Positions 3,001 through 58,130 of a DNA stretch of 64,000 nucleotides are shown here, piece by piece. The translations under genes and the position numbers were made by a program. Each line of letters opens with the position of its first letter. The first letter of the stretch is position 1. Where the stretch lies: IMG/VR virus record IMGVR_UViG_3300020180_000017, positions 1-64,000 of that record. One strand, written 5' to 3'. Below the pieces are notes generated by a model. The model ran no database searches and was not told where the DNA came from. It saw nothing but the letters and a program-made list of their open reading frames with translations. This DNA comes from a virus.

Positions 3001-6000
3001 CTAATTTCATCATTACTATTATCATTGTAAAAATATTCACCATTTCTTTCATATAAAAAATCTAATATTGTATCATTTATTTTTGATTTTCTTATTTCAG
3101 GCTTAACTAACTTACCATATTTTTGATCAAGTATGTTATTTACACCATCAATAATCTTTTTAGTAGAATAAGGAATATCTTCATCATATTCAAGTCTAAA
3201 ATTATTACCTGTTAGTACAATACCAAGCTCATTGTGATGGTGAGCTAAATTGTCTACTACAGCAGCTAAATTAGACTGAACAGTGTTTATGCTATTTAAA
3301 GAAGGATATTTAGTATAACTAACACCAAGTAATTCAGATTTTTTATCTTTATTTACCTTTTCAGAAGCATCCCAAACACTTCCTGAATATACATCTTGAT
3401 TAGAAGCCCAAAGAATATCCTGTGATTGTGGATTAATTTTAAATTTAATCTTACCTCCACCCCCTTCTAAGTGTTCTATTTTTCTATCAACAGGTTTAGT
3501 AATAGCTGAAATAGCAAATTTACCCCCAGCTTTTTCATTATCTTCTATATGATGTAATAGGTTTTGCATCATAAGGTTTACATCAAAATTAGAATAAGCT
3601 CCTACAATAGAAACAAATTCTTGTCCTCTACTATATATTTCTTCTGGATTATATTGAATGTTATTTACTTTCTTCCATTCTTCTATTATTTCTTTTGATT
3701 GTTCATATTCTTTATTTTTTTCTATAAAATATTTAACTGCATAAATAGAACTATTTTTACCCATATACCTATCAAAAGAACCTTCACTTTCTCTTATTTT
3801 ATAAGTAATAGTATAATTATTATCTTTAGCAAATTTTGTATATTGTTCTTTTATATATTCCCAATCTTGGGATAACATTTTACCATCTTTAATTACATTA
3901 GTTACATTTGATGTAGATATATATCTATTAATATCGTTTGGGTCTTTAAAACTTGGTTCTTCTATAAAATCTTTTTCATTTTGTTTAAAATATTTCCAAC
4001 CTCCATATATATAACTATCTACATTTTTGTAATCTTGTAATTTCAAGTTATTTAAATCAAGCTCTTTAACATCTTGAGCTAATTTACTAACATGATTACT
4101 TGCTTCTTGATAAGTTTTATGTTTAACATTATCAGGAGTTGTATATTCTACTTCATATCCTGGAAGTATAAGTTTACTATTACTATAAGCTAATAAATCA
4201 GAAAGTTGTCCTAATGTCATATTATCAGGTAACTTATCTATTTCTACTTCTTTTTGATTTAAAAGACTTCTAATAAAGGCTTTCATTTCTTTAAGTAATC
4301 TTTTAAGTAAAGATATTAACTTACCATCTTTTACATTATCAAGTTTATTAGCAGTCATTAAACCAAGTAATTCTACTAATGCTTCTTCTTGTTGTTCTTC
4401 TAATGTATACTTTGAATTTTCTTTTATGTATTCTTTAGCATCTTGTTCATTAAAAAAAGCAGTGTGTAAAACATTATTTTTATAGACTTCTTGACCTTTT
4501 TGAGTATATATATTTTCTTTATTTACATAATCTTTTTTAATCCTATCCAATACTTCTTTACCTACACCTGTTTCAAGTTCTTTAAGAAGGTTTTGATATA
4601 ATTGTGAATATTCTTTTGATTGAAAAAATGCTTTTTTATATTCTTCTTCTGTTATAATTTTACTTTCCTTTGTATAATTTCCTCCAATATCAGTTTCATC
4701 TCGATACTCCATATTATTTAAATAAAACTTACTTAAATAATCATTTTTATATTTTTCTCCTTTTTCTTTATATTTAATAGCTCTAATAATAGGATGTCCT
4801 AGTATTTCATGTATAGCAGTATCTAATGTAGCATAAGCTAAATTAATATAAGCAACACCATTTTCTATTTTACCTTTATAATTCTTAGTTTTATCAGCTT
4901 CAAATCTAATAGGCATACCTATTCTATCTGACATTGTAGCTGCTAAATCCCTGATGGTTTTTTCAGAGGCTATTATCCCTTCATTAGAATTAGTTTGATT
5001 TTTTTGATATTGAATTTTTTTACTACTTAAAGCATTAATACCAAGTTTATCTCCTACTAATCTAGTTACTTCACCTTGATATTCTGTATTTATACTTTGT
5101 ATAAAATTTGAAACTGTATTAATTTGATTTCTATTATTAATAATATTTCTTATTTTAGAAAAAGTTTCTGGAGAGTTTAAGCTATAGCTATTGGCTACAA
5201 AATCAACTTGCATTTTATTTTGTAGGTAGTTATTACTTGCTATGATTTGTGCTATTCTACTATTATTTTCTTTAACACCTATATACTTTGTTAAAATACT
5301 ATTCTTTTTTTCAATGGATTTTTCAGATTGTTCTAAGTAATTAACTTTTTCTATTTCATCTATTGCTATTTTTGCGGCTTTTAAAATGTCCTTTTTATAA
5401 TTACTTTGCAATTCCTTATCTAAATCTTCTAATGCACTTATTAATATTTTTTCACTTTTGTCAAAAATCATTGATTTTTCAGAATCTTTAGAAAATGAAT
5501 TATGAGAATAAATTAAATAATCACTTAATAAATCTTCTACATTATTAACCAAATTGTCAATTTCATTTTTATAATTGAAAAAAGTAGATTTTGTTTTTAA
5601 ACTGTTTATAAAATCTTTTGTTTGAGTTAATACATCTTTATCAGGTATTAATTGTTCAATAGCATATTGTATTTCGCTATTTAGAAAAACTTTATAGGAA
5701 GGCTCAATTTCTTTTAAATCATTAATGTTTTTATTTTGTTCTGGTGTTAGTTTATTATTTTTATTAACAAATGCTTTAAATTCTGCTATTGTTTCTGGGG
5801 AGTTTAGTATTATTATTTGTTCAGGTTCAAATGCTACAATAGAGCTGGCTAAAATTTCAGGATAACCATCTTGATCCATGTCAACAGATAATGCGCCTAC
5901 TACCCCGTCTTGTTGATTTTTTTCAATAAGTTCTTTAACTTCTATATAGTCTTTTTTAGATCCATTTCTTTTTAATCTATTAAAATAATCATTACCACCC

Positions 6001-40685: not shown

Positions 40686-40704
40686 TTTATTTATTTAAGA
40701 TTAG

Positions 40705-40775
40705 TAGAGCTATTAGGATTCGAACCTAAACTAATCGCTTAGAAGGCGATTTTGCATCCATTACAACATAGCTCT
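40705..40775 (-). tRNA. trnR: tRNA-Arg (anticodon UCU), CCA not encoded
   Basis: Acceptor stem AGAGCTA/TAGCTCT; anticodon arm ATCGC-CTTCTAA-GCGAT; T arm TTAGG-TTCGAAT-CCTAA. Confidence 0.93.
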
Positions 40776-50004: not shown

Positions 50005-50670
50005 TTAGTTGTTATTCTCTACGCTAGTAGAATTTCTTTGATATTGATTATTATTATCCATGTCACCAGCTATTATTTTTGCCGCTTCATCTATAATCAA
50101 CTCCATTACATCATCTTTTAATTCAAAATATTCGTAAGGTTTATTAGAATCGTATTTTTTAGGATTCTTATAATAGGAAAGTGTAACTTCTTTTGGTAAA
50201 AATTCTTTATTGTGGTACACTTTAATTTTATTGCTGCTTATTGTGTGGAAAACCTGTTCAAAATCTAAAGATGGTTTTGTACCGTCTGTATTTAATAAAA
50301 CATCTACATTGCTATCTTCAGCCAGTTGAGAGGGAATAATAATTTCTCCACAATCATCTTTATGTAAAAAGTAAACTCTATTAAAATATCTGTAATCTCG
50401 TGGTAAATTATTTGATTCTGAATAAACACCTCTATCTGTCATTGTCAACTTTCTTGAACTTAATAGAGGTTGTAAGTCATCAATCCTAATTCTACTTTCT
50501 TCATTACCTTCTTTTAGTATATTATTACCGTGGTAAGTTCTCCTAAACCAATCGTTAAAAGCTTTATTTATTACTTCAGATGCAGCATCTTTATCTATAT
50601 TTTCAAAATCTTGAGTTCCAGATTTATTTAGTCTATATTTTAGTTTTGTAAAACCATCTATATATTGCAT
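50005..50670 (-). CDS. Head-tail connector ring protein (221 aa)
   Basis: RLNK..RIDDLQPL..LPRDY..KPS..YYKNP..IIDEAA pattern; synteny. Confidence 0.7.
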   Translation of the reverse strand: MQYIDGFTKLKYRLNKSGTQDFENIDKDAASEVINKAFNDWFRRTYHGNNILKEGNEESRIRIDDLQPLLSSRKLTMTDRGVYSESNNLPRDYRYFNRVYFLHKDDCGEIIIPSQLAEDSNVDVLLNTDGTKPSLDFEQVFHTISSNKIKVYHNKEFLPKEVTLSYYKNPKKYDSNKPYEYFELKDDVMELIIDEAAKIIAGDMDNNNQYQRNSTSVENNN

Positions 50671-51647
50671 TATAAGTCATTCGTTAATAGTTTCATGGTA
50701 TCAGAATACATTTCATCAAAAATATCTCTATTGGATGGTTTCATTAGTTTCTGAACACATTCGTCTAATGTTTTTCCTAGCACTATACCATTTGGAGTTA
50801 CGTACATATTTTCTCTATTGGTGTAAATGTAGTTGTGGTAATCTGCAATCCTTATGATTACTTTCATCATAAAAATGTCTCTATCTGCTTTATATTCAGA
50901 ATAGCTTTTGACAAATTCATTTACAGCCAATTTCTTACCTCGATCTTTAGTCTTACCATCTACAAAATTATAAAGAGCTTTTACTAATGTAGCAATATTT
51001 GTACTTTTAGAAAAACCAAGCATCTTATCTTTTCGATCTCCTAAACTCCAAGATAAGTACAATAGAGCTTCTTGATCACCAGTTTCAGCTAAATTTCCTA
51101 TCATGGAAATTGCTTTAACTTTATTTAATTCATCAAGACTATCTCTAATTTCAGCATCTTTTATTTCTTGTAGAAAATAAGGCGAGCTTTTATACATGGC
51201 ACATTCCATATTATAAGCAACCAATCCAAATGCGTCACAAACAATTTGCCAGTAAAGTATTAAATGTTCAAGCCTGTCTGTATCATAAACTAATGAACTT
51301 GTTTCATTAGTAATATCTAACTTACTATATTGTGGTTGTGACCACATGTATTTATCAGTGTCATCAATCTCCTTTTTTTCACTTCCAAGTAGTTCTTTTG
51401 AAACACGTTTGTAAGCTTCTTTTTGAGCTTTAAGAAGACTTACTTTTTCTTCTTTGGGAATATACTTATTTCTTTCAATTGGTTCAGGACTAAACCCAGT
51501 ATTAAACCTAAATTTTCCATCCCCAATGATAATGCTATTTATTTCTTCTGATTGAAATACTATCAGATTTTGAGCAGTATCTACATTTGTTATATTACCA
51601 ATTGTTTCTTCGGGGTTGTTTTCTACAACGCTAATTTTAAATCGCAT
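50670..51647 (-). CDS. Conserved-type crAss protein downstream of MCP (~325 aa)
   Basis: Likely start MRFKIS at 51647 after an A-rich leader; the track's 5' extension covers the ribozyme. Confidence 0.65.
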   Translation of the reverse strand: MRFKISVVENNPEETIGNITNVDTAQNLIVFQSEEINSIIIGDGKFRFNTGFSPEPIERNKYIPKEEKVSLLKAQKEAYKRVSKELLGSEKKEIDDTDKYMWSQPQYSKLDITNETSSLVYDTDRLEHLILYWQIVCDAFGLVAYNMECAMYKSSPYFLQEIKDAEIRDSLDELNKVKAISMIGNLAETGDQEALLYLSWSLGDRKDKMLGFSKSTNIATLVKALYNFVDGKTKDRGKKLAVNEFVKSYSEYKADRDIFMMKVIIRIADYHNYIYTNRENMYVTPNGIVLGKTLDECVQKLMKPSNRDIFDEMYSDTMKLLTNDL

Positions 51648-51667
51648 GTTTTTTGTTTTATTTTGTT

Positions 51668-51719
51668 TGCTCCATCTGAATTTATACAGGCTGTGGACTG
51701 TCTTTGGCTTCATTAAGCA
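51668..51719 (-). ncRNA. Twister self-cleaving ribozyme (type P1)
   Basis: Minus strand UGCU-UAA-UGAA-GCC-AAAG-ACAG-UCCACAGC-CUGU-AUAAA-UUCA-GAUGG-AGCA. P1 UGCU/AGCA, P2 UGAA/UUCA, P4 ACAG/CUGU, pseudoknot CCA/UGG; core matches the canonical twister segment for segment. Confidence 0.92.
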
Positions 51720-52477
51720 GTAGGGTTGACCCCTACTACGTATGTAAATTTAAAATTTCCTGCTGATTTCCTATTCCCTTTTAACACTCTGCTAATGTGT
51801 GAAATTTTAATTTCCAAACTATTTGCAGCTTCTGTAAGTGATGAAAACTCTTTTAAAATATTTCCATTTAAATCTAATTGAAGTATGGATTTTTTAGAAG
51901 TGCTCGCAGAAGATAATTTTAATTTATCTTCTTTATTTAACGTAGTTCCTTTGTTGTGAACTGTGTGTGTTTTAAAATATTCTTTTTTATTACTGGATAT
52001 TTTTTCTTTTGTCTCTTCAGATTGTATTTTACCTTTGTGAAACTCAGACATTTTTTGTTTATACTCTTCACTTCTTTTCTTTCCAGTATTAGCATTTACA
52101 ATTTTAGCTACGTGATCTTTTGAAAGTTTCTTACCTGTGTGAGCAACGGACATTTTAAGTTTGGATTCTTCACTATGCTTTCCACCTTTACCTCCTTTTT
52201 GAAGATTTAATAGTAAGATACCTGACTCTCTATACTGTTCAATAAAAAATATTTCGTAATTATCTAAAACTTCTTGAGAAACATCTTTTGGTAATTCTTG
52301 AACTATCTCCATTCTATGATTTGTAGAGCCATATTTCATAAAAGAGTTAAATAAAAGAACTTGGTACTTATGTCTGCTTGGAGAACATGTATATCTATAC
52401 AACCTGTTTTCAAGATCCCAACTCTGCCCAATATAAACTTTTTCACTTGGACTTGTGATTTTGTAGATTCCTACCAT
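51713..52477 (-). CDS. Free-standing GIY-YIG homing endonuclease with NUMOD3 repeats and a C-terminal NUMOD1/HTH domain
   Basis: MVGIYKITSPSEKVYIGQS..R..E..LN; HSEESKLKMS, RSEEYKQKMS, QSEETKEKIS repeats; ILQLDLNGNILKEFSSLTEAA. Confidence 0.93.
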   Translation of the reverse strand: MVGIYKITSPSEKVYIGQSWDLENRLYRYTCSPSRHKYQVLLFNSFMKYGSTNHRMEIVQELPKDVSQEVLDNYEIFFIEQYRESGILLLNLQKGGKGGKHSEESKLKMSVAHTGKKLSKDHVAKIVNANTGKKRSEEYKQKMSEFHKGKIQSEETKEKISSNKKEYFKTHTVHNKGTTLNKEDKLKLSSASTSKKSILQLDLNGNILKEFSSLTEAANSLEIKISHISRVLKGNRKSAGNFKFTYVVGVNPTA

Positions 52478-52495
52478 ATTTTATAATTTAGATTA

Positions 52496-52526
52496 CAAAG
52501 ATACAGTGGATAAGTGATACTACAAA
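52496..52526 (-). promoter_or_regulatory. Bacteroidota-type promoter for the homing endonuclease, overlapping the MCP 3' end
   Basis: TTTG (52526-52523), 19-nt spacer, TATCTTTG (52503-52496). Confidence 0.6.
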
Positions 52527-54172
52527 GTAAAGTTTGATAGTTTAGGGTTCTTAGGAACCAATTTTAAAAGCTTCGACGCATCTTTCACCCAAGGAGTACT
52601 TACTCTTTTGGTAAAGAACATGCTAAAACCTGTTGCATTTCCAGAACTGTCATGTCCACTATAACCATTCATACTTTTCTTAAAGAATGGATGTGCTTCT
52701 GTTCCAGCAACGTGATGCCAAGTAGTTTCTCTTTCATCTCTAATATCTCTTAGTATCTTAATATTATCTTTGCTCATAACATAATCATCAATTATGAATG
52801 AATAAGAGGATAATCTATATCCTGTATGTATATATGGATTCAATAGATCATTTGCAAACGTAGGGTCAAAACTTGGCTCATATTCAAACCTAAACTCTAC
52901 TTGACCAGGGATAACTAATCTTGTATAGAAAGGTTTAACTGCGCCAAGACCTGTACGTGCAGTACCTTCAATTATACCTAAAGGTTGAGCTTGTTGCTGG
53001 TAACCTCCAAGAGAATTTACAGCGTACCTTTCAATCAAAGGAGATACTAGTTGCAAACCTCCTTTACCTGTACGAACTCTTACAATTGGTTCTACACCTT
53101 GTTGAACCAAAGGCATTTTACCAGAAGTAAATTTACGATAAGCATTAAGTAGTGTATCCAGGCTAAAGGTATTTAAATCAAAAATATCTTTATAACCATT
53201 TTTGTCTAATTGATGGTAAATACCTATTGGTAGTCTACCTTTATCAAGACCGTCTCCACCACCAACTACACCACCCTTACCAAACATTATGTAATTACTG
53301 TCTTCGTGAGCAAGCATTTTAAAACAAATATCATCCAATGAATATACTAATGCAGATGCTTTTACATTACCATTACCACCCGCAGCTCTGTATTCATCCA
53401 TGTACTTAATCTGAGGATCAATTGGGCTATCCATGAAAAGATATTCTGTAACAGACTCTTTCATTTGAGCCAATGTCTTAGTGCCAATATCAGATAAAGA
53501 CATACCATTAGAATATCTAACAGCTTCTCTAGTTAAATTATAATGTATTTGTAGTTCAGCAGTGGCTAGTTCTTTTAAATACTTCCTTTCAGAAGCACCT
53601 TTAAATTGAAAACTATCCCAATTTTGACCAAACTCAGAACTCCGAGCAGAAGCCATTTTAAACATCTTACTACCAGTAGTCAAAAATTCAGAAGGTATAA
53701 ATTTATCTTCTGTCCAACCAGAACCTTGAACTATTTTAAAGCGGTAAGCCCATTTGTCACCCATTTCTTTTACACCAGTAACTTCAAGTTCGGGAGAATT
53801 AGAAAGTTTGTCAAATGTTACAATACTACCGTGACCACCCAAAGCTCCATTGGAAAGTATCAAAGAAAATTCTTCACCACCTTTACCAATTTGAATTTGC
53901 TTATTTGGATTTTCTATAATCTTAGTAGATGTATCTGAAGCTGTTGGCAAACTAAAATAGTATGCTCCATCAACATAAGTAATGTCATTGTTAATGACAA
54001 AACCAGCATACATAGGAATATCCTTTACATTTTTATTTGCCCAAAGATCAACAAGACCAAAATCTGTTGGTTTTCTATCACTGGCAAGTTTGAAAATGGA
54101 GGTTTTATCTAATTGAGATGACACTACACCAAGAGTTGTTTCTTTAATGAGTGTACCAGGAATTAAAGCCAT
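52520..54172 (-). CDS. Major capsid protein (550 aa)
   Basis: Size, position after portal and scaffold; motifs IGIYHQL, VRTGKGG, FD..P...GYRLSSYSFIIDD. Confidence 0.85.
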   Translation of the reverse strand: MALIPGTLIKETTLGVVSSQLDKTSIFKLASDRKPTDFGLVDLWANKNVKDIPMYAGFVINNDITYVDGAYYFSLPTASDTSTKIIENPNKQIQIGKGGEEFSLILSNGALGGHGSIVTFDKLSNSPELEVTGVKEMGDKWAYRFKIVQGSGWTEDKFIPSEFLTTGSKMFKMASARSSEFGQNWDSFQFKGASERKYLKELATAELQIHYNLTREAVRYSNGMSLSDIGTKTLAQMKESVTEYLFMDSPIDPQIKYMDEYRAAGGNGNVKASALVYSLDDICFKMLAHEDSNYIMFGKGGVVGGGDGLDKGRLPIGIYHQLDKNGYKDIFDLNTFSLDTLLNAYRKFTSGKMPLVQQGVEPIVRVRTGKGGLQLVSPLIERYAVNSLGGYQQQAQPLGIIEGTARTGLGAVKPFYTRLVIPGQVEFRFEYEPSFDPTFANDLLNPYIHTGYRLSSYSFIIDDYVMSKDNIKILRDIRDERETTWHHVAGTEAHPFFKKSMNGYSGHDSSGNATGFSMFFTKRVSTPWVKDASKLLKLVPKNPKLSNFTL

Positions 54173-55316: not shown

Positions 55317-58130
55317 CTATTTCTTTAAAACCTTCTTATCCAGTGAAGAATCTGAAGAACTGTTCCTGTTTACAACAGCTTGCTTTAGTTTTTTATCGTC
55401 ACTTCTATCTTTCTGTAAAAGTTTATCTCTTTCAATACTTAAGTTGTCTTGATGTATTTCTTGTTGCAGTTGTAAAGAAGAAATTGATTGAGCTTCTTTT
55501 GCTTTTAATTCTCTTTGTTTTAAAATATATTTAAAATTCTCCATACTATCAATTTCTGTATTTGTATTACTATCAGTTTGTAAGCCACCACCCAATATGT
55601 TTAATTGAGCTATATACTCTTTTGATTCTCTATCCAAATCTTTTTGAATATTGCTATTCTCCAGTTCTTTATCCAGCAACAATTGTTCGTGATCTTGTAG
55701 AGCTTTTAATTCAGCTTGTTTTGCTTGCTCTGCTTTACTTGCATTTTCTTGAGCTTGTAATTCAGCTTCTTCTAATATTGTTAAAACTTTAGTTACATTT
55801 TCATCTGCTTCAGCAACAACTTTAAGACGGGTTAATAAACTTTCTTGAAGTGTATTATCAAAAGCCATTTTTTTCAATAGCTGTGTAAATTCTTGATTAT
55901 CAAAAGAATATTTTGGAGTACACATAAAATCTTTATGCAGTAATTCTAAACCAGTTATATCTAACCAAGTATTTTCATCTTTTTCATTTAAATATGTTAT
56001 TCTAAACTCTTTGTTGATAGTAGAATAGTATTGTGTGGCTTCCAGCATTTTCTGATAGAGATCAGGCATAAGTCTAGTGTTAAATTCGTCAAATATTAAC
56101 TCTGTTTGTACTTGTGATATTTGTTGAGAAGCTTGTACATTAAACACGCCTTCTGAAGCTTTTATTTCTCCCATAGCCTGTGGTGTCACACCAACTGTTC
56201 TAAGGGCGTTATACCATATCCTTTCAGCTAATTGATCGTACTTAAGAGCTTCATCTAATGTAGATAAATTTAATACGGTTGGAGCAGACATTTGCCCACC
56301 TGCGTTTTGCATATATTGTTTGTCATATGTTAATCTCAATGTTTTATTTTTCTTTATTTGATCTTCGTAATTTTTTACTATTTGACCGTCATCACTGTCA
56401 TCACTATCCCATCTGCTAACAAGATTTGTAGGGTAAGCTAAAACCAGTCCTCTATCTTGAGCAATGGCTTGTTTAACTCTATTTTTGCAAATATTATATA
56501 TTACTTGATCTTGTTTCAACAAAGAAACTACAGAAACTGCTTTTACACCTCTTTGTTTTAATTCAATACCCACAATTGGTGGTTGCACACCAAATGGGGT
56601 TTTATCGTTTTTAAATTGAAAGTCAAGAGAGTTCCCGTCAATGTAAATTTTATCAAGATTAATACCTAAATTATTAAAATTAGAATGTGTATTATTTGGA
56701 GAAAGAACAATAAATCTTCTCCAATCAGGAACCCACTCCCAATCAATATGTTCTCCATAAACAAGTGTTTCTACTGTTTTATCTTTTAATTTGGCAAAAT
56801 TATAAATGGGTTGTTCTGTAACAATGTAATCTTCATTTATCCAATCAGAAAATTCTATTTCACCTGTTCTACCTATTTTAGTTAACCACCCAATTCTTCT
56901 TTGACTTTTTAAGTATAGGTACATTGTCCTGTATATACGATCTTGTCCATAAGTAAAATCAGGATTTACATCTGGATTAGATAGAGTTACTGTAGTTGTA
57001 TTTGTAAACTCTATCCCTGTAGTATTTTTTAATTCTTGCTTATATCTTGCTACATCCAAAGGCTCATTTGGTTGAGCATTATACGGTCTTGTAGCATCAT
57101 ACCCTTCTTGGCCTATTACTGCACTTGTTCCACCTTGTCCTGTCCTATCCTGTACTTCGTTATTAAAAGAAGATATGAGATTTAAATTATTTCTACCTAT
57201 TGCTGTGTTAACTGTTTTTAATCTATCAATGTCTTCTTGGGTAAGTATTTTACCAAAGTTATCAAGAAGTTCCCCTATGTTCATCCATTTAAACCAGCCT
57301 ATATAATCACTATCAGTTATGTAAACTGAATTAGGAACAGACCCATTAAAAGCAAATGCTTCATCAATATGTTCCACGTGAAACTTATCTTTTAACATGT
57401 TAATATGAAAAATAACTTTGGAAGAATTTAAATAACTCTCTTTAAAAGCTTGTTTCATCATATTACGAATATTGAATTTTTCGTAATTTATTTTATGTAC
57501 TCTATTAGCCCATTCTACTGCTACGTCTTTATAGTTTTTAAATTTTAATTGAGCTTCAATTAATTTTTCTTGCTGTGCTTTACCATCAACAGGTTCTCCA
57601 TTAATAGAAGCATCCCTCATTTCAAGTAGCATACCTTTTAATGCATCTTTAAATATTTGATCTTTTATATCAAATAACTCTGCCTTACTAAATTCGTCAA
57701 TTAAAGAAAATGTCACTTTATTATTTCTTTTTAATTGGTAACCAGTAAAAAGATTTACAAGATTTGGAACTAACGGATAAAATTCCATACCTCCATCATC
57801 TTCTAAGGGAGCATCTAAAGTTATACCAGATTTGTTAAATACTTCATATTGATTTGTATTCTTAACTTTTTTATAGTCGTTAATATCAAGAACACCAGAA
57901 GAAATCCATCTATTTTTAATTATACTATTATAGTTTTGAGCTACTTTAGTTAAACCTATGTGTTCGTAGTAATCTGCAACAGAAGCTTTCCAATCATCTG
58001 TTTTTTCAGATTTAGGTAGAAAATGTATTACTGTATTTGATAGGACAGATGTGTTTTGACCTTTTCTTTTAAAGTATTCTCCTTTCCACATATCTACACC
58101 TCGTAAAATCATTTTGTCTACTCCGGCCAT
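55317..58130 (-). CDS. Portal protein (937 aa)
   Basis: Follows terminase; LPKSEKTDDW, FYPLVPNLVNLFTG, WEWVP, VGVTPQAMG; coiled-coil tail. Confidence 0.85.
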   Translation of the reverse strand: MAGVDKMILRGVDMWKGEYFKRKGQNTSVLSNTVIHFLPKSEKTDDWKASVADYYEHIGLTKVAQNYNSIIKNRWISSGVLDINDYKKVKNTNQYEVFNKSGITLDAPLEDDGGMEFYPLVPNLVNLFTGYQLKRNNKVTFSLIDEFSKAELFDIKDQIFKDALKGMLLEMRDASINGEPVDGKAQQEKLIEAQLKFKNYKDVAVEWANRVHKINYEKFNIRNMMKQAFKESYLNSSKVIFHINMLKDKFHVEHIDEAFAFNGSVPNSVYITDSDYIGWFKWMNIGELLDNFGKILTQEDIDRLKTVNTAIGRNNLNLISSFNNEVQDRTGQGGTSAVIGQEGYDATRPYNAQPNEPLDVARYKQELKNTTGIEFTNTTTVTLSNPDVNPDFTYGQDRIYRTMYLYLKSQRRIGWLTKIGRTGEIEFSDWINEDYIVTEQPIYNFAKLKDKTVETLVYGEHIDWEWVPDWRRFIVLSPNNTHSNFNNLGINLDKIYIDGNSLDFQFKNDKTPFGVQPPIVGIELKQRGVKAVSVVSLLKQDQVIYNICKNRVKQAIAQDRGLVLAYPTNLVSRWDSDDSDDGQIVKNYEDQIKKNKTLRLTYDKQYMQNAGGQMSAPTVLNLSTLDEALKYDQLAERIWYNALRTVGVTPQAMGEIKASEGVFNVQASQQISQVQTELIFDEFNTRLMPDLYQKMLEATQYYSTINKEFRITYLNEKDENTWLDITGLELLHKDFMCTPKYSFDNQEFTQLLKKMAFDNTLQESLLTRLKVVAEADENVTKVLTILEEAELQAQENASKAEQAKQAELKALQDHEQLLLDKELENSNIQKDLDRESKEYIAQLNILGGGLQTDSNTNTEIDSMENFKYILKQRELKAKEAQSISSLQLQQEIHQDNLSIERDKLLQKDRSDDKKLKQAVVNRNSSSDSSLDKKVLKK

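Follow-up and report, generated by a model that had tools for sequence, protein, structure and literature searches.

We describe here a putative RNA-processing module in an uncultured crAss-like phage, in which a hairpin is followed at once by what is very probably a genuine twister ribozyme of the P1 type without stem P3, and which, on comparative grounds, probably serves to give the mRNA of the major capsid protein a ribozyme-made, hairpin-ended 3′ end. The stretch analysed (the window) comprises 64,000 nucleotides (nt), positions 1-64,000 of the virus record IMGVR_UViG_3300020180_000017, which is 72.5 kb in full. On the minus strand, the region 51739-51640 consists in order of the hairpin, a U, the conserved UAA of the ribozyme, a compact structured segment reaching to 51668, an A-rich run and the ATG at 51647 of the next gene. 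The UAA (51715-51713) is at the same time the stop codon of a GIY-YIG homing endonuclease gene that lies between the capsid gene and the hairpin, and an earlier interpretation made from the sequence alone (the sequence-only reading) had seen in this overlap a device for controlling the nuclease. The overlap is exact, as claimed, but most likely a consequence of the insertion of the endonuclease next to a hairpin and ribozyme that were already there.

The assignment to the twister class is founded on a search with Infernal against all 4227 families of Rfam 15, in which the twister-P1 model RF03160 matched at 51719-51668 over model positions 1-68 of 68 with 43.5 bits, as the only ribozyme in the window. 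The expect value (E) was 1.3e-8 on 301 bases and 2.7e-6 on both strands of the 64-kb window, and in the 72.5-kb record the model matched at the same single place (E 7.3e-10). The predicted stems are P1 (UGCU, 51719-51716, with AGCA, 51671-51668), P2 (UGAA, 51712-51709, with UUCA, 51680-51677) and P4 (ACA, 51701-51699, with UGU, 51688-51686), standing in the order of the P1-type permutation and made up of standard pairs throughout; they are joined by pseudoknots T1 (CCA, 51696-51694, with UGG, 51674-51672) and T2 (GC, 51708-51707, with GC, 51691-51690), and the conserved bases UAA, GCC, UCC, AGCC, UAAA and GA.GG are present. The complete twister fold that the sequence-only reading had proposed for the coding strand is thus recovered by a full-length model match with all helices and both pseudoknots intact. 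As described in PMC5408937, twisters have P1, P2 and P4 as essential stems and P0, P3 and P5 as optional ones, and their scissile bond lies in the joining segment J1-2, between a less conserved uridine adjoining P1 and a highly conserved adenine. The cut that had been predicted between 51715 and 51714 agrees with this dinucleotide.

Comparison with other viral copies argues in the same direction. A strict twister pattern, which left the helix positions free, led to 49 further viral contigs, and the non-identical copies among these, the window and its closest relative, the locus L113, number 40. Six P3-less viral twisters were aligned (the window, L113, L002, L004, L020 and L038), and when the published architecture with both pseudoknots was imposed on the alignment, 96 of 96 cells held standard pairs and 9 of the 16 pairs were changed on both sides, as against 27-42% paired in a control with slid partners. 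T2 is invariant in the aligned viral twisters and contributes complementarity only; T1 covaries, and its third pair, at a position that the search pattern did not constrain, is standard in all 31 distinct viral twisters (A-U in 15, C-G in 9, G-C in 5, U-A and G-U in one each). P2 is fully paired in 30 of these 31. As judged from this covariation, the twister fold is under selection in the viral copies. In L113 the twister-P1 model matches at full length with 35.1 bits (E 9.1e-5), and between the window and L113 two pairs of P1 are changed on both sides (UGCU/AGCA to UAUU/AAUA), one pair of P2 from A-U to C-G, and one pair of T1 from C-G to U-A.

It could nevertheless be that the resemblance to a twister arose by chance or is what remains of a decayed ribozyme, with no function at present. 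The match falls short of the gathering score that Rfam sets at 67.2 and is omitted by a default scan; the fourth base of loop L4 is a C in the window, as otherwise only in L113 and L016, while 28 of the 31 viral twisters have an A; and in L113 the T1 pairs are weaker and a junction is shortened. The low score is explained by the absence of the optional P3 stem, since the P3 hairpin of the model is deleted in the window's alignment, and a chance origin or decay would be hard to reconcile with the window-wide E-value, with helices and pseudoknots that are all intact, and with the four compensatory changes relative to L113. We therefore consider such an explanation quite improbable.

The history of the locus can be read from L113, which was obtained by scanning metagenome contigs of the Joint Genome Institute with an alignment of the closest capsid homologues, a scan that returned two loci. 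The L113 capsid is 81% identical to that of the window, and the sequence extends past the capsid gene, where a 210-nt spacer, a hairpin, the twister, an A-rich leader and the orthologous downstream gene follow one another with no endonuclease among them. The hairpin stands at the same place as in the window and is of unrelated sequence, the region from the ribozyme to the downstream start codon is conserved, and the endonuclease region has no counterpart. An endonuclease-free relative thus keeps hairpin and twister behind its capsid gene, and the simplest history, as far as can be told from these sequences, is that the module is resident and the endonuclease a later insertion. The two genomes being collinear here, the presence of the gene in one and its absence from the other marks it as mobile, by this one comparison. 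The alternative that twister and endonuclease travel together as one mobile cassette, for example with the ribozyme restoring expression of the downstream gene, has in its favour that the two are adjacent and overlapping and that, according to reviews, phage genomes are often home to ribozymes as well as to homing endonucleases. It appears most improbable given that tblastn detected the endonuclease neither in L113 nor in the remaining fetched loci, and found no relative of it adjoining the 49 other viral twisters.

In the endonuclease itself, four Pfam domains scored above their cut-offs, namely GIY-YIG (PF01541, 25.8 bits against a cut-off of 22.6), NUMOD3, NUMOD1 and an I-HmuI NUMOD-like domain (PF07460, PF07453 and PF22083), and the protein matches PHROG families of homing endonucleases (phrog_314, E 5.7e-32). 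Its last eight residues, VVGVNPTA, are encoded by the hairpin. In tblastn comparisons with phage endonucleases, including those of crAss001 and Kehishuvirus, eight full-length rows end at residues 246-251, and six of the eight stop at residue 246, where the hairpin begins; the gene was presumably inserted just upstream of the hairpin, and its frame ends in the twister UAA because this is the first in-frame stop downstream of the insertion. With free-standing GIY-YIG homing endonucleases of phages, such as the T4 Seg/I-TevI type, the window ORF (open reading frame) shares the catalytic domain, the DNA-binding NUMOD modules, an intergenic insertion site flanked by conserved genes and a presence/absence polymorphism among close relatives. 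What sets it apart is that it borrows its last eight codons and its stop codon from the resident hairpin–ribozyme module.

The hairpin predicted by the sequence-only reading was likewise recovered. It reads, from 51739 to 51717, GUAGUAGGG, loop GUCAA, CCCUACUGC, and its last three bases (51719-51717) also belong to the 5′ strand of P1. The minimum free energy structure combines a 7-base pair (bp) form of the hairpin with P1, and the centroid structure has the 9-bp form without P1 (z -2.8); the two predicted folds are 0.6 kcal/mol apart. After cleavage the hairpin would carry a tail of 2 nt in the window and of about 4 nt in L113. It has no T-run and was not called by a scan for intrinsic terminators. 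When the 34 nt that lead up to P1 were compared with control windows taken from their own locus, they were as stably folded as the most stable 5% of controls, or more so, in 17 of the 40 non-identical viral twisters, and as the most stable 10% in 20, counts that are descriptive given that the 40 copies represent fewer independent families.

From the overlap of hairpin, P1 and stop codon it had been proposed that the arrangement is a selected control device, in which the endonuclease mRNA left without a stop codon would send the nuclease to ribosome rescue and degradation and competition between hairpin and P1 could couple cleavage to translation. The exactness of the overlap lends this some appeal, and the cleaved RNA would keep the last sense codon intact with only one base after it, which is a typical substrate of ribosome rescue. 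Moreover, of the three frames that lead into the window ribozyme, one stops at the UAA, one would take ribosomes 11 codons inside it and one runs on into a fusion with the downstream gene, so that the frame in use is the least disruptive and could have been favoured after the insertion. Against a selected device stand L113, which keeps the module with no endonuclease to control, and the rarity of the overlap: within the 40 viral copies it is found in one long ORF, that of the window (255 open codons), and in one ORF of 57 amino acids (aa), whereas in the 38 others the frame ending in the twister TAA has at most 41 open codons, and a frame that reads into the invariant UAA ends there by chance about 1 time in 3. 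The idea of hairpin–P1 competition is weakened by the small energy difference between the two folds and by L113, whose hairpin, as we read the sequence, need not overlap P1 and in the predicted fold reaches only its first base. In addition, P1 is reported to be dispensable for cleavage in vitro (PMC5408937). Rescue-linked decay and melting of the hairpin would also be expected to hurt the capsid message, a cost rather than a design. On balance we find a selected device unlikely. The loss of the stop codon from the endonuclease mRNA is most likely a by-product of the landing site; it may keep endonuclease output low, and the frame was possibly retained as the least harmful of the three. The one other overlap, in L036 (1133-1306, plus strand), concerns the 57-aa ORF mentioned above, which stops at the twister UAA.

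According to the processing model that we favour, self-cleavage after U51715 would give the capsid message an end made of a stable hairpin, 2 further nt and a 2′,3′-cyclic phosphate, which 3′ exonucleases should attack poorly. At the head of the downstream message there would be a 5′-OH and the folded ribozyme body, in the manner of a cap, followed by the A-rich leader. Transcription could continue through the later structural genes, and the capsid mRNA would still gain a stability of its own. The GIY-YIG gene, once inserted between the capsid gene and the hairpin, would be read through the hairpin to the UAA and ride on the capsid message; cleaved transcripts would then carry its ORF without a stop codon, and ribosomes on that ORF would unfold the hairpin and come to a halt where the RNA ends. 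Cleavage in vivo, the effects on stability and ribosome rescue are what we infer from this arrangement. Concerning the two messages proposed by the sequence-only reading, a hairpin-capped capsid part and a downstream part with a 5′-OH, the comparative data from L113 and from the distant relatives considered next speak in their favour, and cleavage inside the stop codon as a design is the part that they do not support.

The distant relatives are 62 loci with capsid proteins 25-39% identical to that of the window, obtained by an alignment-based scan of viral contigs. As regards twisters, a regular-expression search of the 62 loci gave three matches to the loosest pattern, which were judged to be chance, and RF03160 matched in none of the 50 whole records that cover 50 of the 62; other Rfam families gave no match at gathering level in the 15 of the 62 loci that were scanned for them. 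The spacers between the capsid gene and the next gene contain a strong hairpin, and in one group this is followed by a conserved motif that fits a minimal ribozyme of the HDV-like class (HDV, hepatitis delta virus): P1 has 6 bp starting from G1-U, P2 makes a pseudoknot, P3 has 3 bp and a loop of the UCCNCGU type, P1.1 pairs CC with GG, P4 is almost absent, and C(U/C)AA stands ahead of the 3′ strand of P2. With P3 and its loop as the anchor, a descriptor matched in 16 of 62 forward strands and in 2 of 62 reverse strands. Eleven of the 16 matches lie in the capsid spacer and one (L064) after the next gene; the remaining four (L065, L077, L087 and L095) were counted as false, being in or before the capsid ORF. 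The motif also occurs in L056 and L066, where J4/2 is longer by one or two bases, and L053 and L064 keep a real P4 hairpin. Ten distinct rows were aligned, leaving out the duplicates L058/L063, the P4-bearing L053/L064 and a variant in L051/L052; 95.9% of their 169 cells are paired, 10 of the 17 pairs, among them a P1.1 pair and four pairs of the P2 pseudoknot, are compensatory and G1-U is present in 10 of 10 rows, compared with 24-50% paired in slid controls. The elements thus show the nested double pseudoknot P1-P2-P3-P1.1 with G1-U and a C in J4/2. Among curated HDV-type models, RF02682 (HDV-F-prausnitzii) aligned at full length but with only 12.4 bits (E 4). The variant in L051 (5719-5775) and L052 (5718-5796) has a P1 that begins with A or C rather than G1, and may be inactive or cut elsewhere.

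All 13 loci with an HDV-like element behind the capsid gene have a hairpin of at least 6 bp that ends at most 4 nt before G1. A hairpin with a T-run is present in at least 19 of the other distant loci; in 28 the hairpin, again of 6 bp or more, missed the T-run criterion, although many of these clearly look terminator-like by eye. The HDV-like elements and the window twister belong to different ribozyme classes, and the likeness is one of position, an analogy and not homology. Common to both classes is that the 3′ product retains almost all of the ribozyme; a member of either class standing directly behind a hairpin would produce a capsid mRNA that ends with the hairpin, a tail of 1-4 nt and a cyclic phosphate. 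In relatives with a terminator a comparable capsid 3′ end would come from halting transcription, whereas the ribozyme version would allow full read-through. More tentatively, and with the balance somewhat against it, one could assume that one branch of crAss-like phages carries a hairpin and a self-cleaving ribozyme after the capsid gene as a kind of ‘post-transcriptional terminator’, the class of which is interchangeable (twister or minimal HDV-like, with a plain terminator in other cousins), and that the endonuclease of the window is throttled by the loss of its stop codon. In a maximum-likelihood tree of the capsid proteins, made by a quick search with midpoint rooting and with long-branch warnings, a branch with 100% support in the Shimodaira-Hasegawa-like approximate likelihood ratio test separates 20 rows, namely the twister pair, L065, L051/L052 and every HDV-like locus, from the 43 ribozyme-free loci.

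Several points weigh against a capsid-processing module, besides the provisional nature of that tree, the sub-threshold score and the L4 change. L113 is the only close relative with context that was fetched, and it has the lower score and a J4-2 that is 1 nt shorter. Half of the viral twisters have no outstanding upstream hairpin, and viral twisters elsewhere have small ORFs of 50-245 aa as neighbours instead of capsid genes, for which reason the link to the capsid is specific to this lineage. No RNA sequencing run was found to contain the stretch. Finally, the stability effects ascribed to the hairpin, the cyclic phosphate and the 5′-OH come from general knowledge of bacterial RNA decay.

As to known systems, the window element shares with the type-P1 twisters (RF03160; Roth et al. 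2014, as given in PMC5408937) the stems P1-P2-P4, T1 and T2, the U-A of J1-2 and, but for one L4 position, the conserved L1 and L4 bases. It differs from them in its place in a crAss-like structural operon after the capsid gene, in the hairpin that precedes it, in a UAA that doubles as a stop codon, in the single L4 change from A to C, and in a score below the curated cut-off. Bacterial twisters are known near phage genes, and PMC6765202 describes the biological role of bacterial and phage twisters as still open, with a suggestion that ribozymes of this sort divide polycistronic transcripts into pieces that differ in stability or translation. The comparison of window, L113 and HDV-like loci supplies, at the level of sequence, a concrete and conserved case of this kind. 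The 13 HDV-like elements resemble the theta ribozymes of Caudoviricetes (PMC10879173) in P1, P1.1, P2, P3, G1-U, the C of J4/2 and little or no P4, and the A-rich leaders of the phages that bear them fit the Bacteroidota hosts reported there. The published function of theta ribozymes is tRNA 3′ processing; 526 hits in phages are not associated with tRNAs, and those in non-coding regions are said to have ‘unknown biological functions’ (PMC10879173). The elements described here stand behind a hairpin downstream of the capsid gene; they may already be listed among the non-tRNA hits in the supplements of that paper. The novelty lies in context and not in the kind of RNA: our literature search found no report of a self-cleaving ribozyme after a crAss-like capsid gene, nor of one overlapping the stop codon of a homing endonuclease, and a passage of a Crassvirales review names only introns as ribozymes.

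A broader parallel is that of cutting beside a hairpin in a polycistronic RNA, which uncouples the stability and translation of neighbouring cistrons: RNase III sites of phage T7 leave protective 3′ hairpins in polycistronic mRNAs, and RiboJ is a synthetic ribozyme insulator. Unlike at the T7 sites, the RNA itself would do the cutting and no host nuclease would be needed. What makes the slot of interest is that two unrelated ribozyme classes and ordinary terminators share it, always after a hairpin and behind the most highly expressed late gene, and this leads to the testable hypothesis that ribozyme-made 3′ ends set the ratio of capsid to accessory protein. A post-transcriptional terminator of the kind outlined above, if real, would give phage twisters and non-tRNA theta ribozymes a concrete biological role. 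A stop codon split by a cleavage site would in turn be a natural collision of RNA self-cleavage and translation termination, usable for studying ribosome rescue and the control of selfish nucleases.

Table. Features of the window and of the distant capsid loci; coordinates of the HDV-like elements are those of their own loci
Feature	Position	Strand	Remark
Portal gene	55317-58130	minus	phrog_6547, E 1.4e-38; upstream of the capsid gene
Major capsid protein gene, 550 aa	52520..54172	minus	probable distant member of the crAss-type capsid family
GIY-YIG homing endonuclease ORF, 254 aa plus TAA	51713..52477	minus	between capsid gene and hairpin
Predicted 9-bp hairpin directly 5′ of the ribozyme	51717..51739	minus	encodes VVGVNPTA
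Type-P1 twister ribozyme without P3 (very probable)	51668..51719	minus	RF03160, 43.5 bits, full model
UAA, J1-2 of the twister and endonuclease stop codon	51713..51715	minus	predicted scissile bond U51715/A51714
A-rich leader, ribozyme to downstream start codon	51648..51667	minus	alignment with L113 shows conservation
Downstream gene, 325 aa, viral hypothetical protein	50670..51647	minus	start ATG 51647
Putative HDV-like elements, 13 loci (L053-L058, L060-L063, L066, L069, L109)	about 5590-5810 each		after the hairpin downstream of the capsid gene
Putative HDV-like element of L064	6670-6754		follows the next gene rather than the capsid gene

The genes from 58130 down to 47816 are all on the minus strand with short gaps between them, in the order portal, 349-aa ORF, 550-aa ORF, endonuclease, 325-aa ORF, a 221-aa virion structural protein and a 724-aa ORF with segments resembling virion proteins. 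The 550-aa protein itself has no match in Pfam or PHROG, and none to PF23898 (Crass_capsid) at E up to 1; its homologues P0005 (67% identical) and P0024 (29% identical) do match PF23898, with E 1.4e-9 and 4.6e-18. The closer capsid homologues P0002 and P0005-P0007 are 63-82% identical to it. Membership in the crAss-type capsid family is thus assigned through these homologues, and because they match, the label of a capsid operon is reasonable. No DNA or protein match to the region or to the capsid protein was found in the phage GenBank collection, and no capsid relatives in the genome contigs collection or in a single-protein scan of the viral contigs. A twister pattern specific to the clade had no match in genome contigs or viral contigs. 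For the 325-aa protein, Pfam and PHROG gave no function, and its matches in the atlas are clusters of viral hypothetical proteins. An ORF finder places the start of this gene at ATG 51713, overlapping the TAA. However, its alignment with the L113 orthologue (53% identity over 321 residues) begins at residue 1 when counted from ATG 51647, and in L113 the frame upstream of the orthologue's start closes after 9 codons; by this comparison the true start is ATG 51647, which puts the ribozyme in the 5′ untranslated region of the gene.

The twisters of L002 (8665-8717, minus strand) and L003 (469-521, plus strand), P3-less twister-P1 matches with 53.3 bits, lie on phi29-like contigs, on which a terminal protein and a DNA polymerase of type B are encoded; in both the twister is upstream of a 123-aa gene and a hairpin stands before it. 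A hatchet ribozyme scored above its cut-off in one of the 50 records of distant capsid relatives (L115, G004:C1:87166-87350, 55.4 bits), and was rejected as an element of the capsid slot, being about 18 kb from the capsid gene; hatchet ribozymes are, according to a preprint, largely confined to Crassvirales. The HDV-like anchor does not occur in the window's own genome, where the only tRNA of the window, a tRNA-Arg (anticodon TCT) at 40704-40775 on the minus strand, is not followed by an HDV-like element. At 52499-52506 (minus strand), 22-29 nt ahead of the endonuclease start, there is a motif resembling TAnnTTTG, the -7 promoter box of Bacteroidota, a likeness that could arise by chance in AT-rich DNA; L113 has a similar motif after its capsid stop codon. 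The contigs of one diverged sequencing run gave no cover of 51643-52823 and no joints. In a second DNA run from a different study (lake water by its label), short contigs are identical to 52364-52514 and to three other pieces of 151 bases, and since they include the start of the endonuclease gene, the endonuclease-bearing variant is not confined to one sample.

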